49,802 nt of DNA from contig NKIB01013929.1 in assembly GCA_002256025.1 (NCBI GenBank), forward strand, positions 1-49,802, written 5' to 3'. The position numbers were made by a program, and so were the translations under genes. The notes under the pieces were generated by a model. That model searched no databases, was not told the origin of the DNA, and saw nothing but the letters and a program-made list of their open reading frames with translations. Of this stretch, positions 129 through 49,456 are shown one piece after another. Origin of the DNA: Asterionella formosa. Its lineage: Eukaryota. Numbering within the stretch: position 1 is the first letter of the stretch; every line of letters starts with the position of its first letter.

Positions 129-130
129 GT

Positions 131-954: not shown

Positions 955-1390
955 TACCGGTACATACGGCCACCGGTATTGGTACGTATGCTTAAAATAC
1001 CTTCATTGCCTGCGTCGACCTGGTACCAGGTACCAGGTAGTGTCTGGTACCAGGGTACCTGGTAAACCAGGTATCATACCAGTAGCGGTATTTTGGTTGG
1101 CAGCAGTTGTTAGATACCTGTACTGCTGTCAGTAGTAGATTCTAAAGGTTCCTAAGTAGTATTTGGAAGTATTGGTCGGAGTCTCACGTGACTGAGAATC
1201 GTTTGTCGATTGACGACCATCATGTATCAATGTCGTACGGAGTACGTACATGGCGAGGACAGTACCTAGAACTGTACTGGTCGCAGTCTCACGTGACTGC
1301 TGGTACATAGTTAAAATAATACCGGGTAGTGATAAGTGACATGCCGACGTACCAGGTACCAGGGTACTGTGGTACAGTGCTGGACCACCA
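955..1390. repeat. TACCAGG/CCTGGTA palindromic mosaic cluster
   Basis: Examples: CCTGGTACCAGGTACCAGGTAG at about 1019 and GTACCAGGTACCAGGGTAC at about 1349. Confidence 0.8.
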
Positions 1391-1833
1391 TGTAGCCTTC
1401 TGAAAAGTATGATGGGACATCGGTTAACGTAGAAAACGGACCATGAGTGATTCCTTTCAGAAGTGCGTGCAGCGATTTCGTTTTGCACAAATAGTTCACC
1501 CTAGTTGCAAGTTGTTCTAACAATGTGTACTCTCATGCAGTTTGTTCATTTGCATTTCTATTGAATACTGTTCATTTTCTATTTTTGTACCTTTTTGTCG
1601 CTCTTTGATAACCTGTGTCAGTCATTCACTTCCCGGCCAGTGCATCGTATTTCGTTCTATTTCTATTTTGTTTTGGTTGTGCGCGTTCAATTTGCAGTAC
1701 TTTTCCTTTTCGCAACCATTCATGCAATACATATATTCAGTTCTCTATCACTTGGGTGTCTCCTTTCTATAAAAAGGAAATACAACCCATCACGTTCACT
1801 CAACACACCACATAGTTCTCATCGTCTTATTCT

Positions 1834-2793
1834 TTAAGCACGCTGATTGCATTCAATCACAGCCTTTGCGACAGCTTGAGCGAGTGGAACAAGCAAAAAC
1901 AAAGCTGTTGTCACTAGCGAAAGAGTCAAAGCAATCGATTTTTGGCCGCCTCCGAATTTCCAAATCACAGAAGCCACTTTGATAGGGCCTACAGTGGCAG
2001 CCTTGACAACCAAACGGAGAGCTCTGTCAATCTGTCGGTTCTGAAACGAAACAAACGCCGCACGACGTGCACCAATTCTTGAAATAACCGTCGATCCGGC
2101 TTCAATCAGCGTCTCTGTCGTCGTCTTGGTGACGAGGGAATCATCTAGAATGGATGAGACAGAGAATTGAGCATTTATCACGCCATTCTTAGCCTCAGCA
2201 GCTTGCTTAGCAGCTTTTTCCTTCTCCAGTTGCACATTGATCTGCAGATTCTGAAGAAGGCGATCACTGGCAAGCTCGGCCACGCCAAGGACAAATAAAG
2301 CATTCTCTTGTGCATTGATGGCGTCAATGTCAGTGGTGACACCTGCATCCCCCGTAAGCCAGTTCCGAATGCTGAACTGGACTTTGCTTGGTTGTTTTGA
2401 CTCATGAAGCCTATGGTACCTTTTGTCAAGGAAAGCCAAATACTCATCGACCTTGTCCTGATCGCTGCCAGTCATGTGATCATCTTGTGGAAAGAGATGT
2501 TGTCGCCAGTTGTTCTGTTTTGTTCGACTTTGCTCACGACCTCCACTTCTTTGGCCTTCTGATTCCTCCGCACTAGTGTCTCGATGCAAGAAGAGCAGAG
2601 TGTCTGTCGTCTCATGGCGTACACGGTCTGCGGGAAGCCGAATTCGGAGAGCAGAAGTGGTGCAATGGGTGGTACCGCTAGCCGAAAACGCCGCAACCGA
2701 CGGAGTCGCGAGCAGTAATGACACCCACATCAATGCCGGAGTAGCAAGTTGTAGAGAGTTGTTAGAGATGCTATTGCATTGAGATTTCGTCAT
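1834..2793 (-). CDS. Hypothetical protein with a probable bipartite plastid-targeting presequence and a hydrophobic C-terminus
   Basis: 319-aa ATG ORF. The signal-like segment LMWVSLLLATPSVAA|FSA has Phe at +1 (ASAFAP-like) and is followed by a Ser/Thr/Arg-rich transit-like stretch. C-terminal TM-like segment IALTLSLVTTALFLLVPLA. An alternative start lies at 2730. Confidence 0.8.
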   Translation of the reverse strand: MTKSQCNSISNNSLQLATPALMWVSLLLATPSVAAFSASGTTHCTTSALRIRLPADRVRHETTDTLLFLHRDTSAEESEGQRSGGREQSRTKQNNWRQHLFPQDDHMTGSDQDKVDEYLAFLDKRYHRLHESKQPSKVQFSIRNWLTGDAGVTTDIDAINAQENALFVLGVAELASDRLLQNLQINVQLEKEKAAKQAAEAKNGVINAQFSVSSILDDSLVTKTTTETLIEAGSTVISRIGARRAAFVSFQNRQIDRALRLVVKAATVGPIKVASVIWKFGGGQKSIALTLSLVTTALFLLVPLAQAVAKAVIECNQRA

Positions 2794-4100
2794 TGTAAAT
2801 ATTTGTGAAATGGGGAAGTCTTTTACAGGTTGTTACAAACTTTTACCGGCATGAACTTTTGATTTTTATGAAATATTCTGGACCTTCTTGCACAGGACTT
2901 CCAATCGCTACATATGACTTCCAAGTAGACTACTACCAGAACTGGTAGGGATTGTTCGGTTTTGGTATGATTCAACGCCATTTCAACGACGGGAATTAAT
3001 ACAGGCGGGGTCAAACGCGGTTCTATTGGGATTCATAAGAACCGATAGCTGACGTCAACATCACGAGGAGCTGACGGCAACATATCGTAGATTGAGACAA
3101 TCGCCTTCAACGAGATTGTTAGCTCTCTTTGTATCAGAGTTGGATTCTGAACGAGCACCAGCTGTTTTAACCATGTGTATCGCATGCCAAAACCGTTATC
3201 GACACCCCGAGGCCAGCGGGTCGTCAACGGCCAATTGAATGTATTCCTGGCTTTTTCATGAAATTTTGGGTTTTCGACCATCCTTTCACAGGAGTGCGAC
3301 TCCGACTCTTCGTGTTCGCCTACGACTTTTAAGACCTCCCAACAGGGTGACCGACACTATGTATCACAGGGCCTTGGCAATGAAGGTCACCCTATTCGCT
3401 GTATCCTCCATGACGCGCCTAAATGGGGTTCGCGGAAGCTGCAACTCCGATGAACAAACGAGAAGGCGCTATCCAAGAATAGTCTAGTATCGACAGAGTT
3501 TGCGTACGCATGCATGTGGAACAACGAGGACCATGACGAGTCGATCGAACGATGACGATGACCAGTCGATTCTTCTAGGTATTGGACATCTTGTTTAGTG
3601 CTATGCCGCTTTCTCGGGAATCGGTGATCGTTATTCCGTTTCATCTCGAAATGGGAATGCACCCCCCTTTGGAAATAACTAAAGCTGTCGTGACGCAAGC
3701 GAAATGTTTTGGCGCGCCTGGGAAGTGACAGTCTAGATCAACTGTGGATTCGTATCAATCTATTGTCAACTGGACGAAAGAGTCACTTCAGCAGTTCTTG
3801 TATTGTTGAAGAAATCAGAAGTCGGCTGAACTGCGTTGGAATAACTACCATCCGAAGATGCATGGTTGCCGTGCTTATTATACTTAGTGTAACTATGGTT
3901 ACCGCCATTACGAGCCATTTTGGCAAGACACCACTTCTACTAGTGAATGCTCCTGCTACAAATTTTGGATTGCCTCTTTATTCAAAATCCTCTGTAGATG
4001 GGTTTACCTGGACCATCGACTTGAAATTTTGTCCATAGTTTGTTCAATGTACATCTCGAACAACGCTCAACAACCAACAACCAGCCAAGCCATCACGATT

Positions 4101-4790
4101 CTATTGAAACGCCATATTCTTTGATCGAAAGACCGAAAAATTTCCATCTCGTAAGATACACACCGACGCATATATTCCAATAATGGGAAAGAAGAACCAA
4201 AGGGAATTGGAAAAGCCAACAAAGCTAAGCACTTCGACCATGGGTCGTCCCACGTACCTCCGATTGAAGCAATAGGAAAAGAGGTAAATGATTGTTCCAT
4301 ACAGAACTTGCCAATACGATGCAATTCCAACACATCCCACTAGGACAGGCGACACTCGTTCTGGGTAGGCCATGGCATAATTCCACAGCAGGCAAGGAGG
4401 AATCGTTGACATGCCGTTGCCAAAGTCAATGAAGAATCCAAAGGACTCGTGATTTTGGTAGGATGGATCATAGAGAGAATATGTAGACCACATTTTACTC
4501 CATTTTGCACTGTCAAAGACATTAGGCAATGGCAGGAATAGAAAAGCCAATGCACCGTCCTTTTCGCGTCCCTTGTACTGTTCCTTTAGTTTCTTGAAGT
4601 CCTTTTTGATCAGCATAATGCGGAAGCCAAGAATGAGTTCACATATAGCAATCAATATATTGAGGTTGTTGAAAAAGAGCATAGATACTGCGATAGAGCA
4701 TGCTCGGTCAATGGGAAGGGCCAATAGACATCCTCCAGTCGTGACAGCCAACCAAAGGCAGATGGCTGTTAAAATGTTCAGTTGGGGCAT
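4101..4790 (-). CDS. Multi-pass membrane protein, emopamil-binding protein/EXPERA-like (sterol isomerase-like) family
   Basis: The ORF is open from 5000; the likely start is ATG 4790 (MPQLNIL..., 229 aa). It has about 5 hydrophobic segments. Motifs NILIAICE and WSTYSLYDPSY..ESFGFFIDFGNG recall the EBP W..Y...D.RY motif. Confidence 0.6.
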   Translation of the reverse strand: MPQLNILTAICLWLAVTTGGCLLALPIDRACSIAVSMLFFNNLNILIAICELILGFRIMLIKKDFKKLKEQYKGREKDGALAFLFLPLPNVFDSAKWSKMWSTYSLYDPSYQNHESFGFFIDFGNGMSTIPPCLLWNYAMAYPERVSPVLVGCVGIASYWQVLYGTIIYLFSYCFNRRYVGRPMVEVLSFVGFSNSLWFFFPIIGIYASVCILRDGNFSVFRSKNMAFQ

Positions 4791-5004
4791 TTTGGATGTA
4801 TTTGAAAACGATGATTTGAACTGTAATAATTCCAACATTGACCGACGAACAAGTCTGGTAGAATCGGATACCAAGTAGAAAGCAATGCTTAAGATTTTGA
4901 GATTGATCTCGAATTTTTTGTCGTCTGGTTGTTGTTTGCCTCCAGTGTGAAAACTTGACCAACGGGATCGTGCTGATGCATCACTTTTCGATGCATGCAT
5001 ATGC

Positions 5005-5135
5005 CGGTATCATGCTACCGGTATCTTTGATAAATGACCCGGTACCAGGTAAGTACAGGTAATAATCTACAGGTACGAACACCAGGTACCAGGTACCTGG
5101 TACACTGAGTACCTGGTACCAGGTACCGGTAGTAC
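5005..5135. repeat. TACCAGG/CCTGGTA palindromic mosaic cluster
   Basis: Two perfect 18-bp palindromes: GTACCAGGTACCTGGTAC (5086-5103) and GTACCTGGTACCAGGTAC (5109-5126). Confidence 0.9.
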
Positions 5136-5199
5136 ATAAAGGCAATGAATGGCACCGCTTTGAACCCAGATACCCATTTGGACCACAGCCAATGATTTA

Positions 5200-5600
5200 G
5201 AGATTGGATGGTTGTTCCAAGGAAAGTCATCAACCATCCATTGATTTGGGATGCTCATGGTATTGTTGAACAAGCATTTTGTGTTGGTTACACTCGCAGT
5301 CTTAGTGCTGACATTGCCAATGTGTATAATCTGATTGCCCCTGGCAGTCCATCAGACAAGTTGTTAAGTAGATTTTTCAGGTTGGTGATTGGCACACACA
5401 ATATTGATGTTGGAGGCACATCTTTGGGAATCATCATGTTTAGCTATGTATAAACAAACAGCAATTGGTAGAACCAGTGGGAATGTTGGAAGTCTTACTA
5501 TTTGGAGAGTCCCCATTTGCCCCCTGCTGATTACAAATATGTTAACATTCCAGTTTGGAATGATTTCTACCCACAATCAGGCACTTAATCACCTCACAGA
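5200..5600 (-). mobile_element. Decayed Ty1/Copia (CoDi-like) reverse transcriptase fragment
   Basis: The minus strand reads INIVCANHQPEKST*QLV*WTA..GNQIIHIGNVSTKTASVTNTKCLFNNTMSIPN. This resembles the diatom Copia RT pattern IVC..RP.K..P.RVR.T.GGN.I.Y.G.VST.TA...T.K.LFN...S.P. It carries stops and frameshifts. Confidence 0.7.
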
Positions 5601-5625
5601 AAAAAATCATGATGGTCAGCCAGCC

Positions 5626-6050
5626 ATTACTACAATGCATCCTAAAATCAGCTCATCTCTATGCTATCATGTGAATTATTTCATCGTACATCTATCTTAA
5701 ACATGATCTATAATTCTAATCACGAGCATTGTTCAAAATAGATTGGAATGGATCGTAATTTAACTATCAAATTTAGCAATGCTATCTATTATTCTATATG
5801 CCAGCGACCCAACATTTCTCTCTCTACTCGGGTCAATGTATATTGTTCCTGTCTCGCCCTTTTCTTCCTCTTGTCTGAATCTTGTGCCAAGCAGTGCCTT
5901 ACTAATGTTGCGTCTCTCTCCCTGCTGTTAGTGTCATTCTGAACTCGCCGACTATTCCGTTGTTTGATCGGTTTTATTGTCCTATGCAGTTACAGTAACA
6001 AGCAATCATGAGAACGAATGACTTGTTAGCAAGACATGTTACACTGACAC
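5626..6050 (+). repeat. Dispersed ~420-bp repeat, copy 1
   Basis: Reverse-complement match to 40697-41114. The spurious ORFs MDRNLTIKFSN (5748,+) and MDRNLINKFNN (40993,-) reflect it. Confidence 0.9.
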
Positions 6051-6953
6051 AACATCACGCCATTCCATCGTATCCTCTTGCTTGCTTCACTTACCACAGC
6101 CAAATCAAAGCAAGTGATGCATAAGTCTGTAATAGTAAATTGTCAGTAAATTCTTGAATAATTAAGTTTCAGGTTTCCAAAATAAAACTTATATATTCAT
6201 TTTCGTTAGCTAAACTTTGAGAGAAGGTAACGTGGCATGTCCTTCAGTTATGTTCCATCAGAAGTGAATAGGACCGCCCAACAACAAGAGCACTTACCAA
6301 TTTTGTTTTGTTTCACATCGGTGCTCCCCAACAATCGAAACGAGCTATTGAATCAACTGAGAAAAAAGGAAATGTGCATTTAGTTTACAATTTGTTGTTG
6401 TCCTGCCTCCCAATGATTGTCATCCAAGAACCACATTGATGGCTTCATTACCTTAAACATACTCCATCCTTCGAAGGCGCAATGTGTCGAAGCCACAATG
6501 TTTTTCGTTATTGCGTAAGCTTTCCTTGTCATATGCTTAACAATGAGTGAACTTGTAGCCTCATCCGCAGACTCAATAATGTCTCGTTTTTCTTGGTCAT
6601 ATCTTCAAAACTGAGCAATGACGACCAGAAACAAATACGGAATGTGCAAAGTATATGCAAGGTCTGTTGCATGTATGATGTGTTCCATGTCGAAAATGTA
6701 AGTACATCTGATACATTATGCATCCGATTTCTTGACAAAAATGTACAGTAGTACAAATTTATTTTTATTTTTATTTTTCGATTTTCAATATGCTAAGTAG
6801 TAAAAAGAGTCATCGAAAATTTAGTTAGGATAAGTTTCTATCATTGATAGAAATTATTATTGACTTGCTACAAATTTAGTCAAAAAAAAGTAATCCCAAG
6901 TTCCCCCGACTAACTCATTATGCATTTTTCGGACACTTTTATGCAAAAGTGTA

Positions 6954-7150
6954 ATGGCCCCCTCCTCTGCCACCACATATATGTTGGCCATTATCATGGC
7001 AATTCAATTTTTCGTCCGAACTGGATATGGAGTCTCCTCATCCTACTACAACACCACTGCCCAACTCCTTATTTTGGGAGTGCTCCAGGGTAGTGGGGAT
7101 GCCCCATGTATCGGGCTTGCTTTGTGTCAAAAATATTCTGTTCTTACAAT
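6954..7150 (+). mobile_element. Non-LTR retrotransposon (LINE, possibly Ambal-like) RT fragment
   Basis: FFVRTGYGVSSSYY...ILGVLQGSGDAPCIG resembles the LINE RT motif-B region (V.TG.G.S...Y...G.GQGSG.SP..W). No YADD-type motif follows, so it is truncated. Confidence 0.6.
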
Positions 7151-9683
7151 CTCTAAAAAAAAACTCTCAGAAGGATTCACTGCAGTTTGTCCAGAACACT
7201 TCTATCCTCCTCCCGTCTGGGCAAAGCCTTCGTCGATGACACCGATCTATGGCTCACCAGCAATTCTCTTTCCGGGCCAGATCTGGTTGCTTCAATGCAA
7301 CAAACGCAAACGGCGGCTCTTTAGCTTTACAGAAACGTGTCTACTGTTTGGTTACCTGGGAATGGGACCATCATGGACATCCCACAATCCAATCCAACTC
7401 AGCATCTCCGGATCTATCTCTCCCAATGTCTGCAAATAAAAACCATCATATTCCTATGATGCATCATAGGATTATGACCATCTGATCATAATTTTTCGTT
7501 GTATCATCTAATTATTTTGAGAAATGACCTCGTAATTTAAATAATAACCCTTTTGATTATGTAAATTATATTATTATTTGTATTTTTTCCATTAGCTAGG
7601 TTCCTTTAATTAAATTTCTTGGTAGGATAATGTACCAGCTAAAGTAATGTGGTTTGGCTCATCATCCTTTCCAGTCCTCACTCTGATTCTTGCAACAACG
7701 ACAAAGCAGCCATGTCGAGAGGAACAAGTGTTTGTGACAAAATCTTCATTTTTGTTCAAGTCATCAAATGTCTTGTTTGATAAATCGTCATCTACAGTCC
7801 AAAAATGGAGTCTCAACCATGCCGCCTGCAATTCTTCAGAAATCAAGAAGATTGTACCATGGAACAATTCTTGTCCTTTACCTGAATATTTTGAGTTGAT
7901 TTTAGAGAATGAATACTGGATCAAGATCAAGATTGATCAGATTGCCGCACTTTGTGTTGCTTGCAGGCCAAATCACGATTCGCCTAGCATTCTTCCCAAT
8001 TTTTTCGGCGCACCTTGCTTGAGCATACAGAAGTAAGTTATCTTGTGCTAGCCGCAACAATTGCTACAGAAGAGCAAGCAGCAGAATATCATTAATAAGT
8101 ATTGAAATTGATACTAGAATTTGTCATCGTCTCATTTGCAAATTTTAAAGATATAACCAAAGTATCAACACCATTTAATCTGTATTAGCTAACTTGATAA
8201 CTTATACTGAGTGATTATTTCTGTCTACAGTACAAAATAGTAGAGAAGACTTGAGAAAATAAAATCTTGAGTACGGTGCAACAGCTCAAAATGCAAGATA
8301 TTATTTAAGCTTTTTTTCGTACTTACTTTCAAAAATTGTAGTTCATGTCATGGTTCATTCCTATTCCAACGGAATCTTGCCTTGATAAGTAAGAAGGTCA
8401 TTTCGAAGTTACATAAATACATACATATATACATGCAATAATACCATGATTTTTCTTTAGGCGGCTAAAAAATTTGCGTCATGTGAATATTCACAAATTC
8501 CCTAACTTTAATATTTGTGCACTTCCTGACGCTTTTGTTTATTGTTCTTGTTCCAGGTTCTTAAGTTGATAATGGAGTTGCTTGGTCCCAACCAGCATGA
8601 AAGACTTTCAATTTTTTTCTTCAACTTGTGGGGGAATGGGTAGATTAATGTGTTGACGTTTCCAAATATTTTCTTGTTATTGTGGATTTTCTTCTTGCTA
8701 CTGTTAGTGTTGTCATTGCATAAATTTCTCGCTTTAGGTCCCTTCTTGGTGGTGGATGGAATGTTCGAAAAAGTGATAAGAGCAGGAAACTGGTTGATTG
8801 GTGAAGTGTCTAAATTCTTGGTTTGTCTTCTAATGATGAAATATTGGACAAGCTCTGTGATGAATCTCTAGACTCTTCATTGAATTCGACAGCATCACAC
8901 AACAATACTTCTGAAGGAGTGGTGATACAAGGGAGTTCCAAATAAGATTGAGCAATGCCAGATAGCATATCATTGTTAATGATGCTTGAATGTCTACAAC
9001 ATGAGCTGCTAGAATTTGTGCACTGTATCTTGTTCATCATCCTGATTCACCTTGAATGATTTGTTTGCCTCCTCTAGAATGTTGATTTTGTTCCCTGAAC
9101 AAGAAAGCAATCAAATTCTTGGCAAGTGTGAATATAATGCTCAATGGAGAAGCATCGAGGGACAGTAGAGCAATAGTAGCATTAGATAGAAGCAATTAGA
9201 AGAGTTCTGCTATTTATTTCAATGAATTTTGCTATGAATAAAAGACGTTCTTTATTTAAATAAGATTAAATGAGACTCTGTCTGGTGACACATTTTTCGT
9301 TTGAGGAAATGACCGCAACTTGCTGTGACCACCTGGTACCCAACCTATCTAGAATTGATGTGAATTATGCATATCAAATAAACATGGAATACAAAATTAT
9401 AACCGGTAGGTACCTGGTTTGCTTTTTCCGACAAAGAAATCATGCATGGAGGATTGACAGAAGCCATGTCAAGGAGTTGCCCCCACGAGGAATCAATTAC
9501 TCGTTGCTGCCTTGACCCTGCCTCTCCTTCGTTATTCTTCCATCTACTGTCATATTTTTTGATACATTTTCAATGTAATGAGTAGCATTGAACAAAGACA
9601 GTACAGTATTGGTAAACGAGCTGACCAAATCTCGGGATAAGGTACCGTTACTTCCATCACGTCTGTGAAGCGACATTTCTCCA

Positions 9684-10142
9684 ATGTCGACCATAATGTC
9701 AAATTCAAGCCAACAAGATAAAGCATTGCCATTTTGTTTACTACTAGTATTCACGATTGCAGTCACTACAATGGTACATACATTCACGTCTGTATTTCGA
9801 ACAAACAGAAGATTGCAAATCTCATTGGCTGCAACGACAGGCAAGAAAGGTGGGCAAGCGGGGGATTCAATTAAAATAAACGACATAAATGAACAGACGA
9901 CTGAACACTCAAACGAGGTGATTGAAAAATACAATGAAAGAAGCAGAAATACCAAAGAAGGCATTGTGGAGAGTGATGGCAGAGTAGATGTTTCGGATAC
10001 TTCGTACAATGTGAGCAACGACAACTGGAGATGCGCGTGCGAGGGAGGGTTTCTACCTCCTGGATTGCTCAAAACGTTTGGAAACATGGAGAGTGTCTAT
10101 AAAATGGGAATTGGCAATTGCTATCACAAGAACAATATTTAG
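9684..10142 (+). CDS. Small hypothetical protein with an N-terminal TM/anchor and a Cys-containing C-terminal motif
   Basis: 152-aa ATG ORF. Hydrophobic LPFCLLLVFTIAVTTMV, a low-complexity acidic linker, then WRCACEGGFLPPGLLKTFG...MGIGNCYH. Confidence 0.65.
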   Translation: MSTIMSNSSQQDKALPFCLLLVFTIAVTTMVHTFTSVFRTNRRLQISLAATTGKKGGQAGDSIKINDINEQTTEHSNEVIEKYNERSRNTKEGIVESDGRVDVSDTSYNVSNDNWRCACEGGFLPPGLLKTFGNMESVYKMGIGNCYHKNNI

Positions 10143-10565
10143 GCCTGCGTTTTGGAATCCAGAGTCATTCATTTCAAAATACCAAATGTTTTTCAGGAGG
10201 TGGGCTAAGTCTGCCAATATCAATAAGCCGGTGACGATTTTTGCTTCCATTGGAACTCACTACAGAAAAAAAACTACTTCCACCACATTGGTTGGAACAT
10301 GTTTTAAGGAAAGCTAGGCATCCAACAGGTTGGTTTAAATGTTTGGTAGAAACTCTTGTGTAACTTCTAATGCATGTTCAGTGCCAGCCCGAAATTGAAC
10401 TTGAAACCACAAGTCAAATTGTTTCACTCCTGCCAAGCCATCCATTGCGACATTCTTGTGCGCTACTCTAGACTGTCCTGAAAATAAATCACAACCACCA
10501 CGAAACCCTAGGGCAATAATGCAGCTGCAGTGTTGTAAACAAAATTATACCATTCGTGAAAGATT

Positions 10566-11772: not shown

Positions 11773-12153
11773 GACTGTGTGTGACTACCGGTGAGATCGG
11801 GGGAGTAAAATACAAAAACAGCGAATGTGAGTGAGAACGGCGAAAGGAACGGATAACAACAAGCTATGCCTTGGTTCAGGAACCAGCGAGTGATGATGTC
11901 ATTCGTGATGTCATCAATGTGGTCAACCAATCAATAAGTACGAATGCTTTTTTTTCGAACACCCTCTAGTAACATTAGATTCTACGAGTATGTAGATCAT
12001 ATCAAATAACCATGAACCTTCCAAGAGAGGATGCGGACACGTCAGTGCCTAACGATCGACGTACCTGTGGATTGGTTCGCTCTTAGACTGGCTGCCGCCC
12101 CCTCGAAAAAATTTAACGTGTGGTCGGGAACGAATCGTTGCCTACCCTCAAAT

Positions 12154-12570
12154 GTACCAGGTACCGTGGACCTGGTACCAGGTACCGTGGACCTGGTACC
12201 AGGTACCGGTAGATATAATGAACATGCCGATGTACCGGTATGTATGTAGTATCCCGGCCTCGCCTTCCCGAACCAATCGCATAAGCAATGCCTATATATA
12301 TATATACCTGCAAGCTGCGGTAATTGTGCTAAAACTGTTACCTACCGGTACCGTACTATGTCGTACCAGCAAGTTGCGGTTATCTGGCTTAAATCAACAA
12401 TGTAATATGGGATAAAGGTAGCTATACCTTTAGCTTGGTCACAATTACCGCAATTTGCAGTACCTGTTACCGAAAGTAAGTTTTCAACAAGTCGCTCCGT
12501 ATGATATGGCGGTTCTCGATGTGCCTGTACACAATTGGAGTACCGGTACCAGGTAGTCGACTACCTAATA
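12154..12570. repeat. TACCAGG mosaic cluster including an exact 21-bp tandem duplication
   Basis: GTACCAGGTACCGTGGACCTG x2.6 at 12154-12208. Further TACCGGTA/GTACCAGGTA units occur at about 12235, 12345 and 12541. Confidence 0.9.
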
Positions 12571-14175: not shown

Positions 14176-14199
14176 GATGAGGATCAGGTTTTTGTATCC

Positions 14200-30222: not shown

Positions 30223-30224
30223 AT

Positions 30225-39806: not shown

Positions 39807-39906
39807 AGGGGAATGGTTAAATTGGTTAGCACCCAACACCTCATGAGGTGGTGGGTTCGATGCTTACATTCTCCACCTGACTTCCATTTATGTAGTCCCT
39901 AGGGTT
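39807..39906 (+). mobile_element. tRNA-derived SINE-like element, copy 1
   Basis: GGGGAATGGTTAAATTGG (A box), GGTTCGATGC (B box) and CATTCTCCA (acceptor-like pairing). The tail TTTATGTAGTCCCTAGGGTT is shared with copy 2. Confidence 0.6.
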
Positions 39907-40696
39907 GTTATGGGGGTGGGTGAGGATGACAAAGAGACAGTTCCTGTTTTACTTTGTGGACAACAAAACTGGTACTAATTGTTTCCATTCAAGTGGGCAC
40001 GAGTGCGATTATTGAATAGCTTTAACATACTGTAAAATTTAATGGCCATTTTTTGTTTCTGAGCATGAATTATCCTGTTTGTTTTACATACAAATTTTCT
40101 TGACATCAACACATATTAATTATGGACTGATCAGGTAATGGCTAAGTGCGTCTGCAAATAGAAAACATGTTATTCATGTGATGCATCTTATAATGACAAT
40201 CACAGTATGATGATATAATTTCAATTTATCATCTAGTATATATAATAATTATCGTCAAAGAGACTATTGTCAAGTATAAATCTATACATACTATCTATGG
40301 ATTGTTTACCATCCCGCTACAACAATCAGCAGTTGCTCAATCAATTGAAATTCATTAGGTGATGGAGTTAAAGTTGTCGGATATGTGGATGTTAAAAGTA
40401 AGATCAAAAGAGCTAAATATTGTTATCCGTGGTCTAATTTTATTGGCAATCTTTTGAAACCAGAAAGTGACATCTATAATTCATAAAGTTTGATTCATAT
40501 ATCCTAAATGTTTGATCAAAGCGTATCCATCATATGATAGGAGTGTCAATTATACGAGAAAATGAAATATAATTATTATATGAGTTGTACCATACGAAAA
40601 GTGTTGTATGGCTCCCGCTGATTGAGGGGCCTACCACTGACTTGTAGGTACTACAAGAATCGATAAGGAAAAAATCAAAAACAGTACATCAGGTCG

Positions 40697-41114: not shown

Positions 41115-41785
41115 AATTTACATATTGCAATCACGAGAAGTGAAAATAATATGAGAAGGTTTATGATATTGATGAGAAATGTTGTTGATCAGTTGATGTA
41201 CATGGTGTGATGACAATGTTCTTATTATCATTATAGTTCAAGGTCGGTAAGAAAATATTAATAAATCATCATAGTTATAGGATACCTTGATCATAGTTTT
41301 GATCCAAAAATTATCATATATACGAAAATCCTGTGTCACTTAGCGTACAATACCCTTGATCCTATATGCATGATACTTTTTATTTGCAGACGAACTCCAA
41401 AAAGCGTTGCATCAGATTGTTGAGGGCTCTCCTTTTTGGTTGAACTGGCTGGCTGATGGTTGCAACGAAATACCTCGTGCTGGTTCTTGGTCCCAGTGTT
41501 CCATGCTACCAAATACCGGTGGTACCAGGAAGGTCCTGTAGCGCACGTTTTGTTCGCACCTTTTCAGTTTCGACGCACTCCCAATAGATTTTCTCATGCC
41601 TGGTGCCTGACGAGATAGACTGGTTTTTCATTCAAAACTCTCATAAGTAACTTTCTTTAATGTTAAATCATCATTCATTAACTCCAAGTCGTGTTCTGAT
41701 CATCGCAATCGTGTTCACCTACTACTACTGGTAGTGTATTCAGCAACTGGATGACGGTTTGCTAATGGGGTTCACCAATCAATAA

Positions 41786-41896
41786 CTTCTAGTCGTAGTC
41801 AGAAATTTCTAGTGATAGTCAGCAGTTTCTAGTTGTTATTGACAGTTTCTTGTTGTAGTCAGCAGTTTCTAGTCATTGTCAGCAGATTTCTAGTCG
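41786..41896 (+). repeat. 20-bp minisatellite, about 5.5 degenerate copies
   Basis: Consensus approximately TTTCTAGTCATTGTCAGCAG at period 20. Confidence 0.85.
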
Positions 41897-42132
41897 AATT
41901 TCATTGTCATTGTTGTTGTCGTCAACTAGTTCGGCAGCAATCATGAACAAAGAGTCACTTTGAAAATGTCAATGGACTATTAATAGACATTACATAAATA
42001 GTGAATCAAACAAAATAGCGCTCGACCTATAAATTACTGTAGTATAGCATGCTGTAGTACTATGCTACTGTGATTTTGTCAAGTCTGTTCGTAACTTTGT
42101 CGTTTTGAATTGTGCATCATCCGCGCACCTGG

Positions 42133-42225: not shown

Positions 42226-42745
42226 ATGTTTTGTTAGATATAATTACCAAATAGCATAGCATCGTTTTCATTTTCCATGGAGGAATTTGTTATTTTCGAC
42301 ATGGTCAAGGCAGAGATGGCGCAATGGCAGGATTCTCTAGCTGCGCACAAGAACTGCACTCTAGCATTTTATATCCTGAAAGAAATCGCAACATCTAAGC
42401 TAAGTAATTATATACTACTAGTTTCTAGGCTACCTCAGGTACCTGGTACCTTGAAAATATGTACCGGTATCATAGTATGTACTAGCCATAGTATGCATGT
42501 CATAAGTGATTTGTATGATATTGCAAATAGTCTAGTATAGGGGTACCCGGTAGTAGGCTGTTGCATCTGGAATGATAATGACTGTGACCATGCATGATGT
42601 ATATAGATATCACGTTAGATATGCTTATATGCAGTTTTGGCAAGGCAATCAGGGGGGAAATGGTTGTCTTTGTTCATGTATAGTACACTGCCTTCATAGC
42701 CATAATAAGGGTCCTCATTCAGAAAATCTACCAGCATTCTTATTT

Positions 42746-42815
42746 GCAAGTTCTAGTTGTTGTCAGCAAATTTTACTAATTGTCAGCAAATCTTAGTCAT
42801 TGTCAGCAAGTTCTA
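42746..42815 (+). repeat. 20-bp minisatellite, about 3.5 copies, same family as 41786-41896
   Basis: TTCTAGTTGTTGTCAGCAAA / TTTTACTAATTGTCAGCAAA / TCTTAGTCATTGTCAGCAAG. Confidence 0.85.
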
Positions 42816-43024
42816 TACCGTATGTAGAAACCTTCCAGGTACTCCTACCAGGTAGAGTACCGGTAGCAAGTTCTTTTACGGGTGTACCGTACATAGGTAC
42901 TGCCATGATATTTGTCATTGCCTGCTTCTGCCTGCCACATACCCCAGTGCACTATCATACCCCCAGATGGCAATAATGTAAACCGGTTGTTTCAGCCCCA
43001 TAACTCTAGTCCACTGAGATAAAT

Positions 43025-44955: not shown

Positions 44956-45053
44956 TAGTTACAAGTAGTAATGTGATGGCAGTAATTACACTGTAGTCAG
45001 TAGGTGCACTCTACCTCTCGTTTTCCTTCTCGGGATTGAACACAAGCGGCCTT

Positions 45054-47723
45054 CTAGTTCTCAATCGTTTCCAACTGAGCGATTAGTTTTTTGACAGGGG
45101 CGACCACGGCGACACTGAGATCATGAACGGAGTAATAATAAAAGTTGCAGAATGCTTTGAGTGTATTCTTGATCAATGTGAATCCCGTTGAGCTCCCGTC
45201 TTTATTTCGTGGCATCGTACCATCGATAATCACTCGAATTGAACGGCTGATATCATCAGCCTTGTCGCCGACAAGGTCACTCTGTATCATACAGCAGGCC
45301 AGCAAAATGAATCCATTACCAGCTGTTACGAGATTCTCGTCAGCGTCTTTGTCAAGATACGTATTCGAGCCTTGATGACAAACATCAGTTTCCTTACTCG
45401 ATTTGCCAAAGGTACCGTGCATTACACCATCGCGGAAAGACTCGGTTTGTGAAACCACCCAATGGGACAGCCAAGAAATAAAACCTTCTTCGGAAACAGA
45501 ACCCCTACCAACCTTGTGACGCGCCAGAATTTGCAGAAAGCCAACCGCTTCAATGGCGTTTGTCAGAGTGTTGAGACAAAATATTGTAATATCGTAAGCC
45601 AATGGAACATAGAGTCCCTTGACATTCAAGTCCTTTGCGTTCTTCGAATCTACAACCCTGAACAACAAATCAGCAATCACCTCTGGTCCCAGCTGCTCGT
45701 CCTTGCTGAAGAATGTATACCCCTTCATAAGTTGACCGTCTGCGACTGAATTCTCATGCGATAAACTGGTCAACGTTCTAATCGAAATAAGAGCAATCTC
45801 GTGAACTAACAAAGCATCGTCCACGTGTATCGTGAGAGTCGATGATCCATTTATTTGACCTGAAATAAAGTCAAGGAACTGGAGGATACTTCCTATGATG
45901 CATCCATACGAGCAAAACTCTTGTCGATTTGGCGCGCTGAGACAGCACGCTCCGTCAATCAAAGATGCCAGAATGGTCAACCGATGATGCATGTCCGCGA
46001 GACATGCGGAGCACCGTTTATGTGATCCCAAAGTAGCCATGACAGCCGCCAAGGTCTCCGCCATACCGCGTGCCAAGCGTGGCAATGAGCCACTTTTTCT
46101 AAGCAGGAAATTTGTCATCATAAATGGATTGGTGGCTTCTTCCTTTCTAAAACTTTCCTCTTCCGTCTCTTCATTTGAATGGATATTTGGAATCACATGA
46201 GCTGCTTCGTCGTCCAAGTTGTCGATGCACGAATCTTCGTCGCCTTCCTTCCCCTGTACGATACGAAGCATGGCTTCCAACGCGATCATCGCAGGAGATA
46301 TGGTCGTTGTTATTCCGCATGTGTGCTGGACCTCGCGTTTGACCTCTATCCCCACTAATTTGGAACGGATCTCGGTCAACAAGTTTTGAGTCTTGGTGAT
46401 ACTAGGAGACGCATCGTCAGATCCACTGAAGGTTCCTCCCTTGACATGCGATGTTTCAGATGCAAAGCTCAGTGCATCATTAATGGGCTCACCAGTTTCC
46501 TCAATAATTACAGTATCTTTCACATCTTCAGGAATCTTATCTAAGTCGTTTGGAATTTTCTTGACGACAATTCTCCTTCGCTTTCGTTGCCGCCGTCCAA
46601 AGCTTGTCGGGTCACCCTTGGATGATTCAGTCGCAGCTGAGCTTGCATTGCTGCCTTGTTCATCCAACACTGACAGTGGTGCTTCTGGTTGGGGGTAATT
46701 GGGCAAACAGTCCATGATTTCCACAGCTTCCTTTGCGTGAAGGATTCGTCGTACCACTGGCTCGTGTAATATGAGGGATGCCAAACCAAGAACTGCTACA
46801 GACTGCTCCAACACCAACGTCCGCAACTTTCGGGCCTCCCCAGCCGTATGAGATGCAGAGTGTGAGGATGTAGTGCAATCCCATGATATAAAATGAGCCA
46901 CAATTGCCAACGCTTCCAGCGCTGTATCAGTCAATCGTCGTTTGGTCATTGTTGCCTTGGTCTTGCTGGTTGTCCGGCCACGTCTGGTACATGCTGTTTC
47001 TTGACTGGACGGTACCGTCAAATCATCTGCGTCGTTGTAGATGGTACTCTGATGCTGGAACTTATTTGTTCCTGTACATGATGTTTCAAATTGCGAGTCG
47101 CAAAAGTCATCTTTTCTGTCTACCGGTAGTCCAAACTCAAAATTACACGGCGTTGGTGCGGATATATTGGACAAGACAGTCAATATCCCATCCATAATGG
47201 AAATTTGTTCAGTGTTGGTCCATAGCATTCTCCTCGTTTTCTGCAACGACATCATCAATGCCAGTTCACATAGTGCATTGGTTGGATCTGACATGGTCGG
47301 AATAGTTGAGCACAGGTACAATGTGTCGTCGTGGACCATTCGGTAGGATCCCGAGTGTTGAACGGCGAATACGTCCGTCCCAGCTCCTCGTACCGGTTTG
47401 AAGGTCGACAAGTCGTTCTCACTACTACTGTTGCAGCTGTGGTTGCTCCTCCTCGTCGTTGCGAGTAATAGGCGCTTGCGAGACGCAGCCTCCATGTTAT
47501 TCGTAGTGGTTGGGGAAAGCGAAAATCGTACCACTTTTTCTTGTTTTGTTATTTCTTGTTCCAACTCACGCCACGGTTCGTCCTCCTTGGTTCGTTGAAG
47601 TTTGATGCGACTTGCCTTGGTTCGTCCTCGACTACTCTTGGCACTCGAGGATGTTGTGCTGTACGATGCGAGCGTTGATTGAGAACCGTTCAAGCCTTCA
47701 TCAAAGTCCAAATGATTGTCCAT
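45054..47723 (-). CDS. WAPL: WAPL-like cohesin release factor (HEAT-like C-terminal domain), 889 aa
   Basis: Disordered N-terminus, then SGSYRMVHDDTLYL (cf. GE...F.DD..Y.L), IRTLTSLSHEN (LRVLLNLT.DN), YDITIFCLNTLTNAIE (FD...L.LGLL.NLVE), VTAGNGFILLAC (IVA.Y.ALLLGC) and LKAFCNF, in the expected order. Confidence 0.68.
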   Translation of the reverse strand: MDNHLDFDEGLNGSQSTLASYSTTSSSAKSSRGRTKASRIKLQRTKEDEPWRELEQEITKQEKVVRFSLSPTTTNNMEAASRKRLLLATTRRSNHSCNSSSENDLSTFKPVRGAGTDVFAVQHSGSYRMVHDDTLYLCSTIPTMSDPTNALCELALMMSLQKTRRMLWTNTEQISIMDGILTVLSNISAPTPCNFEFGLPVDRKDDFCDSQFETSCTGTNKFQHQSTIYNDADDLTVPSSQETACTRRGRTTSKTKATMTKRRLTDTALEALAIVAHFISWDCTTSSHSASHTAGEARKLRTLVLEQSVAVLGLASLILHEPVVRRILHAKEAVEIMDCLPNYPQPEAPLSVLDEQGSNASSAATESSKGDPTSFGRRQRKRRRIVVKKIPNDLDKIPEDVKDTVIIEETGEPINDALSFASETSHVKGGTFSGSDDASPSITKTQNLLTEIRSKLVGIEVKREVQHTCGITTTISPAMIALEAMLRIVQGKEGDEDSCIDNLDDEAAHVIPNIHSNEETEEESFRKEEATNPFMMTNFLLRKSGSLPRLARGMAETLAAVMATLGSHKRCSACLADMHHRLTILASLIDGACCLSAPNRQEFCSYGCIIGSILQFLDFISGQINGSSTLTIHVDDALLVHEIALISIRTLTSLSHENSVADGQLMKGYTFFSKDEQLGPEVIADLLFRVVDSKNAKDLNVKGLYVPLAYDITIFCLNTLTNAIEAVGFLQILARHKVGRGSVSEEGFISWLSHWVVSQTESFRDGVMHGTFGKSSKETDVCHQGSNTYLDKDADENLVTAGNGFILLACCMIQSDLVGDKADDISRSIRVIIDGTMPRNKDGSSTGFTLIKNTLKAFCNFYYYSVHDLSVAVVAPVKKLIAQLETIEN

Positions 47724-49456
47724 GGTTGCTATTCAAAACTGAGACAAGGGCAATCTGAAGTTTGTAGTTCGTGCAATTACACTTTAAGTAGCTCTAGTAT
47801 AATGAGGATGTGTGGTTGTTGGTTTGAGTCTTTCCATGATGTATACAGTATAATCATTGCTATGGTATTGCATTCACTTAAACTTGGATATGTGCAAGAC
47901 AAGGCCGGGGCGGTCTCAAACAAGCGACGCCACGCTCCTCAGTTCTTACCTCTTTTTTATAAAATAATAATGAAGGGTAAGTAATACCTTAAGGCATCAG
48001 TCGTAACAAACTGTTGAGACTTGCTTTGTTGTTACCTCCACACATTATGTCTCGGTAGACTCGAGACTAATGGCAGTTCATCAGATTTTGTGTATGTGTA
48101 CACTTCCCTGAGGAATCAAGTACCATTGTTGCCAAATCACACGGTCACTTTTGACATTTCAAAAGGAAGAACCTTCCGTCTCGAATCCTCTTTTTGCTAT
48201 TTTCTACGTAGCTACCGGTAGACATGTAGAAAATTGTTTTTTTGAAAAAATTCTGCCTTTGTGGATACGGTAGTTGCTTGACGGTTTTTACTGTTGGTGG
48301 ATTTGACATAAAAAACTAACCACCGGTATACCGGTATGCATTTACACTTCATGATGGATATCGGGCCACAAGTATGCTGTGACATCGCAATGCAAGTAGA
48401 CTACACGGTAGGTAAAATATTGTTTTCTTTTAATGTACGGATTATCATGAGATGCATGTACAGTATATGCATCCCCTGTATAAATACAGTAGTGGGCGTG
48501 CTTCGAAATTATAATTTTATTTATTTGTGGTGTCCATTATGTGTATTATCTACACAATTTGTTGTACTTAAATCCCAAAAATTTGTGTTTGTGTTGACCA
48601 AATGCCATTTTGGTACCAGGTACTCCCTTTGGGCGAAAACAATTGCATCAATTCCTAAAATTTCTCCAGGTCATTTTCTAGACTTCTACAATTTTCTCCA
48701 GCTCAATTTTCCTAATGAGTCCAATCAAATAAACAAGTACAGATCCATGTATAACCTAAATGTAGTAAATGTACAATTGGCAATTACGAATCAAAAAACG
48801 TTTTTAGGCTTTTTCGATTTTCACCTCTGGCTATCTTGAGAAAAATGCAGAAGAATGAGGACAATTTTTCATCGAACCATCTTTTCTCAACATACATACA
48901 AAGTTCAATATACCAGAACTAGGACAAAGGTAACTTGCATTCAATTATGAAATGTGCAACCATGAAAGTGGCAATGAAGGGAAGGAAGAAAATGACAGCA
49001 TGCTTGTTTTGATGATTGAAACTGTTAAATAGCTGGCAGTTTGGTCCCTGTAAATGTAGCAACTGTAGAAACTATATGAGCGTTGAAGTTCACCCAGAGG
49101 ATCAGTTATATGACAGTTTCGACTAAGCCATGATGATGTGATTGGAAAACTATCTTCCACATGAAAGCTTTGAGCTTCAGTTTCTTTGGTGGATCCTGCA
49201 ATAGTACTTGACCAAACCATTATAAATTTGGTCATGGAATTCAGAGCCTGGCTGGTGTCTCAAGACTTTGAAATTTTTTCTCAAACTCACAATGTCTCAT
49301 CCAGAAGATCAAATGACCTTGTGAGAGAATGATTGAGTGTCATTGTCATTTTCTCTGTGCCCCATGCATGGTGGCAGCAACTGTTTGAATTGAATCATAT
49401 AATGAAAGATTCTGACCTGCAGAATACTGAACAGTTTGCACAAGTGCGATAAAAGC

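Follow-up and report, generated by a model that had tools for sequence, protein, structure and literature searches.

We found that the palindromic mosaics dispersed through this diatom DNA are piles of a single small unit, TA-CC(A/T)GG-TA or, in a variant without the middle letter, TA-CCGG-TA, and that they do not form a composite signal. The units usually stand in a GTAC context, and they look more like transposon scars than like a gene switch. The reading we prefer, with a probability that we would put at roughly 40%, is that they may be iterated excision scars of a cut-and-paste transposon in open upstream DNA; an array of sites for a dimeric factor is a serious rival. The stretch analyzed (the window) consists of 49,802 nucleotides from Asterionella formosa, and a search with its MetAP gene assigned it to a pennate diatom.

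A first-pass annotation of the window had described about 18 clusters of TACCAGG and related words, and we confirmed that these dispersed clusters of palindromic words are real. TACCAGG occurred 54 times on both strands, whereas 100 dinucleotide-preserving shuffles of the window averaged 3.9 and never exceeded 9, and TACCGGTA was present in 21 copies where 0.2 were expected. The most over-represented hexamer of the window was GGTACC, with 59 occurrences where base composition predicts 8.0; its overlapping relatives took the following 15 ranks. Merging words at most 80 bp apart gave 50 sites, about 20 of which contained several words and coincided with the clusters described before. Two 18-bp palindromes that had been reported at 5086-5103 and 5109-5126 were both exact. 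For the distribution over coding and non-coding DNA, 14 ORF-based genes (18,090 nt) were taken as the coding set and the remaining 31,712 nt were treated as non-coding. Motif words amounted to 85 nt in the ORFs (4.7 per kb) and 798 nt in non-coding DNA (25.2 per kb), a five-fold depletion that bears out the near-absence from coding sequence noted earlier; TACCWGGTA was found 36 times in non-coding DNA and once in coding DNA, and TACCGGTA 20 times and once, respectively. The sites are listed here by position in the window, with a strand where one was assigned.

955-1073: cluster with a three-unit array at 1019-1039, 3' of the 1834-2793 gene (word counts, TRF)
1350-1363: two-unit array TACCAGGTACCAGG (word counts, TRF)
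5016-5131: cluster upstream of the 4101-5000 gene (minus strand), with two exact 18-bp palindromes (merged words)
9332-9417: weak cluster; the start codon at 9684 (plus strand) lies 267-352 bp downstream
12155-12240: cluster upstream of the mitochondrial-carrier gene, with a perfect 21-bp tandem repeat of 2.6 copies
12343-12555: two more cores in the mitochondrial-carrier spacer, TACCGGTACC at 12343 and TACCGGTACCAGGTA at 12541
14259-14275: core TACCAGGGTACCTGGTA; the MetAP poly(A) contig stops at 14214, 45-61 bp before it
17261-17430: cores at 17261-17269 and at 17406-17430; the DNA around them is rich in repeats and has no callable ORF close by
25823-25920: cluster in front of the cold-shock-domain (UNR-like) gene, about 400-500 bp 5' of its start codon (merged words)
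27876-27985: cluster with a perfect 22-bp tandem duplication (merged words, TRF)
28272-28384: cluster at the left edge of a Mutator-like transposase relic (merged words)
28855-30248, minus strand: the frameshifted Mutator-like transposase relic itself (Pfam PF20700, E 2.3e-11), given as context and lying outside the repeat
30228-30752: four cores (30228-30263, 30405-30431, 30569-30577 and 30728-30752) upstream of the 30811 gene (plus strand)
32751-32757: lone word CCTGGTA between the divergent genes 31898-32509 (minus strand) and 33073-33741 (plus strand)
36900-36910: core GGTACCTGGTA, 250 bp upstream of the 36036-36650 ORF (minus strand)
38235-38559: long degenerate cluster in repeat-rich DNA
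41514-41529: core TACCGGTGGTACCAGG (merged words)
42438-42865: clusters at 42438-42547 and 42835-42865, in front of the aldehyde dehydrogenase gene and 160-587 bp from its start codon
48213-48622: weak cores at 48213, 48322-48336 and 48612-48622, between the 45054-47723 gene (minus strand) and the 48336 ORF (plus strand)

The spacers between genes are filled with the same units in 70 unrelated, eukaryote-like loci from metagenomes. Neither DNA nor protein similarity was detected between the window and these loci, which yielded no orthologous spacers and no orthologues of the window genes. The unit was common to genomes of 41.6% and about 44.5% GC, and at least two diatom genomes that differ in GC content have kept it. 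The loci of 44% GC had an excess of TA-CWG-TA (204) and TA-GWC-TA (181) as well, together with many (TAC)n/(GTA)n runs in which the strand switched at TACTAGTA (147 versus 5.9 expected); they were also rich in other TA-bounded palindromes. Among high-GC bacterial loci, 32 of 50 carried just the two seed units. A viral origin was considered and rejected, the viral contig collection giving just 10 single seed matches.

In the window, 37 units had A or T at the center and 5 had C or G; in the 70 loci these numbers were 452 and 3, which is the self-complementary form with an A/T center that an excision footprint would have. Among 127 adjacent unit pairs the centers were AA in 23, TT in 43, AT in 34 and TA in 27. 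The center letters of neighboring units are thus chosen independently, which speaks against slippage copying and against target duplication as the source of these pairs. The strand flip through GGTACC that had been read into the clusters dissolves into the same free choice of A or T at the center of a palindromic unit, and GGTACC itself arises because adjoining units overlap in a common TA. Arrays grew in 7-bp steps (CCWGGTA) with a shared TA, the longest having 5 units, and single units made up 39 of the 48 arrays in the window and 250 of the 357 in the loci. In the non-coding DNA of the window, CCWGG had TA on both sides 36 times, on one side 30 times and on neither side 29 times; since the last number equals the ORF density, the whole CCWGG excess is bounded by TA. 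A run-phase test on 265 runs in the loci, each too short for the search seed, showed that 184 started with T or GT and 183 ended with A or AC, compared to 29% for a random phase. Both the CCWGG excess and the run ends therefore fit an insert flanked by TA, as in a footprint. Beside the arrays, G was found at position -1 in 57-69% and C at position +1 in 52-58%, and R-GTAC-Y was enriched in this DNA.

The unit is all-or-none. One-letter variants were evenly spread over all eight fixed positions, with 37 perfect versus 42 one-off units in the window and 452 versus 187 in the loci; once inserted, units decay evenly through point mutation. The CpG-transition products TACTGGTA and TACCAGTA exceeded TACCGGTA in the loci by 145 to 40, from which it follows that those sites are not maintained. 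Unequal tolerance along the motif, as expected of a binding site, was not seen in this flat one-mismatch spectrum with its CpG decay, and the fine structure does not look like that of a selected signal. Most units were solitary and 25-200 bp apart in unrelated surrounding sequence. Core-to-core spacing had its mode at 50-100 bp followed by a simple fall-off, and an inspection of the cores for nucleosome-like phasing gave neither periodicity nor a preferred spacing.

Because the form of the unit copies the Sleeping Beauty footprint, excision scars appear to be the best reading. According to the footprint passages of PMC3878927, Tc1/mariner elements target TA and leave a footprint that consists of the overhang sequence within the duplicated target. 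Overhangs are given there as 2 or 3 nt, and Table 1 of that paper lists the footprint C(A/T)GTA, i.e. TA-C(A/T)G-TA, for Sleeping Beauty and Frog Prince and T(T/A)A for Hsmar1; reinsertion close to the donor site is also described for these elements. Measured against these passages, the diatom unit has the TA duplicated on both sides, as in the Sleeping Beauty and Frog Prince footprints, and its insert is an odd-length palindrome with solely A or T at the center. It likewise resembles Tc1/mariner footprints in being all-or-none, with a shorter form that lacks the center letter, and in being non-coding and locally clustered. In contrast to the overhangs of 2-3 nt given in the same passages, the diatom insert is 5 nt (CCWGG) or 4 nt (CCGG), and the units form stacked arrays of up to 5 at about 1.2 per kb with no parent element in sight.

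Under the scar model, insertion of a TA-targeting element would duplicate the TA target, and excision would leave the end nucleotides of the element behind in overhangs that are self-complementary apart from an A-A mismatch at the center; repair would resolve this mismatch to A or T. Each scar would turn one GTAC target into two, which could explain the local pile-up of hits. Accumulation upstream of genes would then reflect open, non-transcribed DNA in which insertions land and are tolerated, with no promoter signal involved, and subsequent slippage between cores could yield the 21-23-bp and larger duplications. Several observations weigh against this model. The density of about 1.2 units per kb is far above any case known to us, and the same spot must have been hit repeatedly to build arrays of up to 5 units. 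The positional data given below fit a regulatory element equally well, and a conserved DNA-binding protein explains the presence of the unit in two diatom genomes as easily as a shared transposon family does.

The clusters were also examined for signs of mobility. A self-BLAST of the window gave 13 repeat pairs, only 2 of which connected clusters, and these did so via the motif itself. In DNA run X2, 32-58 contigs had a cluster in common and then continued into unlike sequence, with a consensus agreement of 0.35-0.37; this agrees with the earlier remark that different clusters have unrelated flanks. The clusters also break short-read assemblies, in that contigs stop at them or chimerise through them, and the bin 17343-18009, beside the cores at 17261-17430, had very high depth in this run. 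DNA of the window is present in runs X1-X8, and the X2 contig across 183-5654 exceeded the window by 14 nt and aligned with 16 gap letters. A flanking direct repeat of at least 8 bp was found at none of 61 cluster pairs, where chance would give 1.7. Elements with TA|CCAGG...CCTGG|TA ends were absent from about 300 kb (the window plus the 70 loci): all 34 matches of the inverted-end search were the motif itself, and a single weak, low-complexity match was left among the 75 eligible pairs whose interiors were not motif. Flanks, target-site duplications and inverted-end searches all support the statement of the first-pass annotation that this is not a simple mobile element. No Tc1/mariner transposase domain was detected among the ORFs scanned in window and loci, and no transposase among 40 long ORFs adjoining clusters in the metagenome loci. 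Filled/empty polymorphism was not observed: the two loci with repeat samples were identical across their clusters, their sole indel being 5 bp long and outside any CCWGG unit, and a search for diverged allele pairs among the loci gave only identical or 97-100% identical duplicates with identical clusters. A motif word in the transposon fragment at 19063 turned out, by comparison with its paralogue at 39830-40070, to be a chance word and no insertion. Rfam gave no family match in the window.

These data bear directly on the idea that the units are remnants of terminal inverted repeats or miniature elements, for example Mutator-like ones, and that the words are transposase-binding sites. The relic at 28855-30248, which corresponds to residues 340-784 of a 791-aa relative (tblastn map; P0121 is 71% identical), is bracketed by inverted clusters at 28352-28385 and 30232-30265 (34 nt, 76% complementary) and stops exactly at one of them, the cluster at 30228-30263. 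Pfam recognized Mutator-like domain pieces in one ORF and no others, and tblastn with P0121 mapped the rest. Clusters are often paired at 100-500 bp, and Mutator-type elements favor the 5' ends of genes; both points speak for this origin. However, the complementarity of the bracketing clusters consists of shared words only, and the copies share nothing inside or beside the clusters, whereas such elements should have common ends and target-site duplications. The junction expected from a 9-bp TACCWGGTA duplication, GGTATACC, was present in one copy in the window and in two copies in the loci. With the missing duplications and the transposase-free ORFs beside the clusters, we regard this origin as highly improbable.

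A palindromic micro- or minisatellite made in place by slippage, fold-back priming or template switching would need neither transposon nor function; hairpin-prone, GTAC-rich sequence would expand and invert in DNA that often breaks, e.g. open promoters. The clusters do fold into 20-25-bp hairpins with dG of -19 to -21 kcal/mol and z of -4 to -5.6 (-19.1 kcal/mol and z -4.0 for 5016-5131, -21.1 and -5.6 for 12155-12240, and -21 and -5.5 for 25823-25920, which also contains the only three consecutive GGTACC sites of the window), and for five of the six clusters folded none of 200 shuffles was equally stable. TRF reported many period-7 arrays of 2-8 copies and perfect higher-order repeats of 21 bp (2.6 copies at 12154-12208) and 22 bp (1.9 copies at 27940-27981), and in locus L045 a 33-bp segment is duplicated on either side of a motif block. 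Slippage does act at the 21-23-bp level, and the runs and TA-bounded palindromes that fill the 44% GC loci fit the same idea. Yet slippage copies the middle letter, so that new head-to-tail copies should be identical, while 61 of the 127 neighbor pairs differ and the window arrays are mostly single. Neither can slippage seed single units 25-200 bp apart in unrelated sequence. The run ends are locked to TA instead of having a random phase, and such a process offers no reason for the same 9-mer in different species. We consider it unlikely as the source of the units. The first-pass annotation had itself offered a repeat made in place in open chromatin as an alternative, and this lies nearer to the scar reading than its promoter idea does.

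The position of the units relative to genes is what most concerns a possible function. At least 11 motif-covered bases were present within 600 bp upstream of the start codon in 9 of the 14 ORF-based genes; when the motif track was rotated 5000 times through non-coding DNA, 118 rotations reached this number of genes. Total upstream cover was 419 nt versus a mean of 213 (reached in 51 of 5000 rotations), i.e. an enrichment of about two-fold; one gene had no upstream cover and four had less than 11 nt. Density fell from 56 per kb within 600 bp upstream to 15 per kb at greater distances, and the 300 bp that follow stop codons had 2.5 per kb. The claimed upstream placement therefore holds as a two-fold enrichment, but distances ranged over 16-590 bp and not 80-500 bp, and in the test for a preferred place relative to gene starts they varied over 45-590 bp. 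In the poly(A) and metatranscriptome data, RNA contigs stopped 45-210 bp before a cluster at three genes, and at two genes the gap was 45-100 bp; for instance, metatranscriptome contigs end at 4918/4919 and the next cluster begins at 5016. Near the 9684 gene (plus strand), RNA contigs begin at 9517, 9553 and 9662. The 1834-2793 gene had been singled out as an exception with a downstream cluster, and indeed the poly(A) contig 1569-2814 puts the 955-1073 cluster past its 3' end. RNA cover of the 1-20 kb parts without contigs was left out of the evidence. Several clusters are situated between a gene and high-copy DNA, and strong clusters at 17261-17430, 27876-28384, 38235-38559 and 41514 lie far from any callable ORF. 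In the loci, density per kb was 65 in divergent, 32 in tandem and 18 in convergent spacers. Spacers holding a seed were divergent in 7 cases, tandem in 14 and convergent in 1, compared with 2, 19 and 11 for unseeded spacers on the same contigs. Every spacer in the loci longer than about 1 kb had units, including all three long convergent (3'-3') ones, and the seeded spacers were all longer than 1.1 kb, so spacer type is confounded with length.

The serious rival holds that TACC-W-GGTA or GTACCWGGTAC is the site of a putative lineage-specific homodimeric DNA-binding protein, arranged in homotypic clusters, perhaps a general factor that keeps upstream DNA nucleosome-free or insulates genes from neighboring transposons. 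It would account for the enrichment near gene starts, the low density right after stops and the clusters just beyond the RNA contigs, and both the seeded-spacer counts and the spacer densities, which approximate the 2:1:0 promoters per divergent, tandem and convergent spacer, are consistent with it. A dimer on an odd palindrome sees a central A and a central T alike, which explains the independent middle letters, and persistence of the unit across genomes of different GC content would be natural. On the other hand, dimers do not usually contact the center of their site, for which a bias of 452 to 3 toward A/T is extreme; there is no pattern of tolerated positions, and the CpG-decay products are abundant. 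Overlapping sites at 7-bp spacing cannot all be occupied, and some copying mechanism is needed anyway to put perfect 9-mers at hundreds of separate sites. The presence of units in all long spacers whatever their type, the five genes with little or no upstream cover and the strong clusters in repeat-rich DNA away from callable ORFs also argue against it. We judge this factor to be possible though doubtful. The promoter or insulator role proposed in the first-pass annotation thus retains a modest positional enrichment, while the flat variants and CpG decay are unlike a selected signal. Scars and function might also be combined: an unseen TA-targeting element of pennate diatoms with a 5-nt stagger could have left self-multiplying TA-CC(A/T)GG-TA scars, whose arrays were then co-opted as nucleosome-excluding or boundary elements. 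Scars would in that case make up about 2.5% of intergenic DNA, or tens of thousands per genome, and mutational origin and regulatory role would both hold; we think this combination rather improbable.

Other known systems match the unit in part. Simple-repeat promoter elements include the GAGA-factor (GA)n repeats of Drosophila and plants, plant telo-boxes and the yeast Reb1, Abf1 and Rap1 sites. Like these, the unit is a short word of variable copy number upstream of many unrelated genes and could set up nucleosome-free or boundary regions; unlike them, it has a flat variant spectrum and only two-fold upstream enrichment, and its binding protein is putative. Bacterial REP/REPIN and Correia elements are likewise short, hairpin-forming, intergenic and dispersed with unrelated flanks, but they measure 20-150 bp, are prokaryotic and move whole, whereas the unit here is 7 bp long, belongs to a diatom nucleus and forms clusters that all differ from one another. 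SBP-domain GTAC copper-response elements, recognized by CRR1 of Chlamydomonas, were reportedly described by Kropat et al. in 2005. The GTAC core and the enrichment of R-GTAC-Y recall such elements, but what is conserved in the diatom unit is TACC-W-GGTA and not just GTAC; SBP proteins are described as plant-specific. A literature search for the TACCWGGTA motif in its literal or IUPAC form found no description of it.

If the scar reading is true, this diatom lineage would record cut-and-paste transposition at an unreported scale, the units would be a countable and datable trace of insertion landing sites, and the 5-nt excision geometry would be one undescribed for TA-targeting elements. If instead the units are binding sites, they would represent a general promoter-region word of pennate diatoms, whose promoter grammar is poorly known, with direct use in expression engineering. 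On either reading, the units provide a simple, testable marker of non-transcribed upstream DNA.

The words that make up the mosaics are real and far above chance in the window. TACCAGG was present in 54 copies on both strands, where 3.9 were expected and the maximum among 100 dinucleotide-preserving shuffles was 9, and TACCGGTA was present in 21 copies against 0.2 expected. GGTACC was the most over-represented hexamer (59 versus 8.0 by base composition), and the 15 hexamers ranked directly below it were its overlapping relatives. Merging words no more than 80 bp apart gave 50 sites, of which about 20 contained several words; these lay where the first-pass annotation had placed its clusters, and the two 18-bp palindromes it had reported (5086-5103 and 5109-5126) were both exact. 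The claimed near-absence from coding sequence also held. With "coding" taken as 14 ORF-based genes, among which Pfam backs the carrier, MetAP, cold-shock-domain, Vma22-like and aldehyde dehydrogenase genes, word cover in the window was 4.7 nt/kb in coding DNA versus 25.2 nt/kb in the remainder; TACCWGGTA (W, A or T) occurred once in coding versus 36 times in non-coding sequence, and TACCGGTA once versus 20 times. In the DNA run X2, clusters 1018-1039 and 5109-5131 were each common to 32 to 58 contigs, which diverged beyond the cluster (agreement 0.35-0.37). Since these contigs share the clusters and then differ, the words must occur at many places in the genome amid unrelated sequence, in line with the earlier statement that clusters do not share flanks.

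The main new result is that the mosaic consists of stacks of one unit, TA-CCWGG-TA, or TA-CCGG-TA when the middle letter is missing. The gap between TACC and GGTA in the window was filled by A in 21 cases, T in 16, C in 3 and G in 2, and was empty in another 21; in the loci, metagenome contigs found with the seed TACCWGGTACCWGGTA, the matches listed had A in 204 cases, T in 248, C in 1 and G in 2, with 40 empty. CCWGG in non-coding window DNA (n=95) had TA on both sides in 36 cases, on one side in 30 and on neither in 29; because the 29 without TA equal the density in ORFs, the whole excess is TA-bounded. The phase of the unit was read by following the 7-bp periodic pattern as far as it extended in the loci among the matches listed: of 265 runs too short for the seed, 184 began at T or GT and 183 ended at A or AC, versus 29% if random, and this TA phase was weakly visible in the 42 runs of the window. 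In the window, 39 arrays of the form TA(CCWGGTA)n had one unit, 8 had two and 1 had three; the loci among the matches listed had 250, 85, 17, 4 and 1 arrays with one to five units. Position -1 was G and position +1 was C in 52-69% of arrays, and the context of the unit is therefore GTAC. The middle letters of adjacent units are independent (AA 23, TT 43, AT 34, TA 27; n=127 pairs). One-letter variants affected all eight fixed positions evenly in window and loci, with perfect versus one-off counts of 37 versus 42 in the window and 452 versus 187 in the loci among the matches listed, over backgrounds of roughly 9 and 50, respectively. CpG-transition products numbered 15 versus 21 for TACCGGTA itself in the window, and 145 versus 40 in the loci among the matches listed. 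The GGTACC joins, the strand flips and the 18-bp palindromes of the mosaic described earlier are all results of stacking one unit. Cluster hairpins were strong (dG -19 to -21 kcal/mol, z down to -5.6); any pile of palindromic units would fold likewise.

The window is pennate diatom DNA, because its MetAP shares 80-85% identity with named Cylindrotheca, Pseudo-nitzschia and other diatom proteins; the public runs containing the stretch are freshwater or lake samples. At least 132 metagenome stretches matched TACCWGGTACCWGGTA, and a viral contig collection gave 10 single matches and no more. Among the matches listed, removal of 10 duplicates left 70 loci of 39-47.5% GC (252 kb), which carried many further units, up to 25 each; outside that GC range, 32 of 50 had just the seed's own 2 units. 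The window and these 70 loci showed no similarity in DNA or protein, nor did the loci among themselves apart from duplicates. Their long ORFs were ordinary eukaryotic genes, one with DUF6824, a domain that to our knowledge is diatom-specific, and clusters occupied intergenic spacers there as in the window. In loci of about 44-45% GC among the matches listed (e.g. L046, 3450-5214), spacers were rich in (TAC)n/(GTA)n besides CCWGG units, with runs changing strand at TACTAGTA (147 versus 5.9 expected), and also held TAGCTA, TA-CWG-TA (204) and TA-GWC-TA (181); of these palindrome types, the window species has CC(W)GG units only.

We then considered placement relative to genes. Motif cover in the window was 56 nt/kb within 600 bp upstream of start codons, 15 nt/kb farther upstream and 2.5 nt/kb in the first 300 bp past stop codons. 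When the motif track was rotated through the non-coding DNA of the window in 5000 trials, the 9 of 14 genes with 11 or more covered nt in the 600 bp before the start codon were matched by 118 rotations, and the summed upstream cover (419 versus a mean of 213) by 51; 4 genes had less than 11 nt and 1 had none. The upstream association is real, yet only about two-fold. In the loci among the matches listed, units peaked 400-1000 bp from start codons, and divergent spacers (65 per kb) were denser in them than tandem (32 per kb) or convergent ones (18 per kb); seed-bearing spacers were 7 divergent, 14 tandem and 1 convergent, versus 2, 19 and 11 without seed. Spacer type is there inseparable from length, because seeded spacers all exceeded 1.1 kb and every spacer above ~1 kb had units, including all 3 long convergent ones. 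Three RNA runs and one DNA run were compared with window positions 1-20000. Poly(A) contigs spanned 1569-2814, 3531-4602 and 9662-11276, and another, from MetAP, joined 12707-13899 to 13979-14214, confirming a 79-bp intron (13900-13978). Metatranscriptome contigs ended at 4918/4919 and others began at 9517/9553. Clusters 14259-14275, 5016-5131 and 9332-9417 sat 45-210 bp outside assembled transcripts, only a weak hint of transcription starts because the evidence is contigs rather than read ends. Metatranscriptome contigs 388-2555 and 957-4918 crossed two genes and the clusters at 955-1363 without a break; they are either library DNA or read-through transcription, and some clusters may thus be transcribed. 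At 10438, between the convergent 9684 gene and carrier gene, contigs of X2, X9 and X10 (3 of the 4 runs) carried 8 inserted bp, CATCATGG, that the window lacks; the poly(A) run from what is probably the source sample had no such insertion. Other features of the window were as follows.

13873-14199 and 12858-13904, minus strand: MetAP1, whose zf-C6H2 (MYND-like) finger has a first exon of its own
28855-30248, minus strand: frameshifted Mutator-like transposase relic, 45-71% identical to residues 340-784 of P0121
45054-47723, minus strand: ORF of 889 aa, no Pfam match, nearest WAPL-like clusters (0.90-0.93, language-model features)
1-128 and 39641-39768: dispersed repeat pair (72-94% identity range for all five pairs)
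5626-6053 and 41114-40693: dispersed repeat pair
6571-6924 and 18305-17054: dispersed repeat pair
18985-19174 and 40043-39856: dispersed repeat pair
37334-37523 and 49457-49667: dispersed repeat pair
41787-41920: 20/60-bp tandem array unrelated to the motif, upstream of the aldehyde dehydrogenase clusters
49567-49802: 21-bp tandem array unrelated to the motif, at the window end

The resemblance of the 45054-47723 ORF to WAPL-like proteins (cohesin release factor) is only a lead. Dispersed repeat fragments, together with X2 depth that was very high in some bins of the first 20 kb, mark transposon-rich blocks at 5.3-8, 17-19, 37-41 and 49.4-49.8 kb, in whose ORFs no Pfam domains were found.

With a probability of roughly 0.4, we read the units as excision scars of the Tc1/mariner type. 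A TA duplicated on either side of an odd-length palindrome with only A or T at its centre is the canonical Tc1/mariner excision footprint. Sleeping Beauty and Frog Prince, which target TA, leave C(A/T)GTA (PMC3878927); that review describes a footprint as the overhang bordered by the duplicated target, and notes that elements reinsert close to the donor site. By analogy, the excision of a putative element that starts with CCAGG and finishes with CCTGG would leave two CCAGG overhangs, which would pair at four positions around a central A-A mismatch and give TA-CC(A/T)GG-TA, or TA-CCGG-TA if the mismatched letter were lost; one scar would make two GTAC from one, favouring repeated hits. Such an origin would account for the TA frame and 7-bp step, for a strict A/T centre that varies independently from one unit to the next, for units that are either complete or missing and that decay evenly, for unrelated flanks and local clustering, and for the way units avoid ORFs and transcribed DNA. 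It would need an overhang of 5 nt, versus the 2 or 3 nt described for Tc1/mariner. No parent element with CCAGG...CCTGG ends was found in ~300 kb (window plus loci among the matches listed), and no filled/empty polymorphism was seen in loci sampled twice among those matches. The sole indel between two samplings, L049 (at 3284) and L073, 99.9% identical over 7.2 kb, was 5 bp in a GTAGTAG run; it could be written as TA + GAC + TA, a 3-nt footprint form, or could be chance in low-complexity sequence.

Several other origins were weighed against excision scars. Slippage of units would copy the middle letter, as would target duplication of 5 or 7 bp, yet half of neighbours differ and most units are single, standing 25-200 bp apart amid unrelated sequence. 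On a larger scale slippage does occur: positions 12154-12208 and 27940-27981 hold perfect repeats of 21 bp and 22 bp, respectively, and in locus L045 a segment of 33 bp is duplicated around a block of motifs. A micro- or minisatellite made in place and driven by hairpins would fit these repeats and, in the GC-44% loci, the further palindromes bounded by TA and the (TAC)n runs that change strand, but is at odds with single units and independent centres, and we consider it improbable. An ordinary transposon or miniature element was rejected, which supports the first-pass annotation in seeing no simple mobile element: flanks were unrelated, a flanking direct repeat of at least 8 bp was found in 0 of 61 cluster pairs (versus 1.7 by chance), and inverted-end searches over the ~300 kb of window and loci among the matches listed matched the motif itself only. 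That the units are remnants of transposon terminal repeats seems very improbable; the single case in its favour is the Mutator-like relic, which is flanked by clusters and ends at one. This relic has lost the N-terminal 339 residues of P0121 (791 aa, from a protein cluster with 159 member sequences), and the break coincides with cluster 30228-30263. It may just as well have inserted into a zone of clusters that was already there, in which case clusters 27876-28384 and 30228-30752 would be one upstream zone of the 30811 gene.

A binding-site array for a putative dimeric factor is the strongest competitor, if somewhat less probable than scars. Such a factor would explain the upstream bias, the symmetric centre and a unit common to different species; it leaves the 150-fold A/T preference at the centre and the flat variant spectrum unexplained, and gives no origin for perfect 9-mers at many separate sites. 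Of the promoter or boundary signal proposed by the first-pass annotation, the upstream place is borne out (two-fold, 9 of 14 genes), whereas the structure of the unit points to scars. We found no description of the motif in the literature on diatom promoters, palindromes, SBP/GTAC or mariner footprints; its kin would be either transposon footprints or simple-repeat promoter elements.
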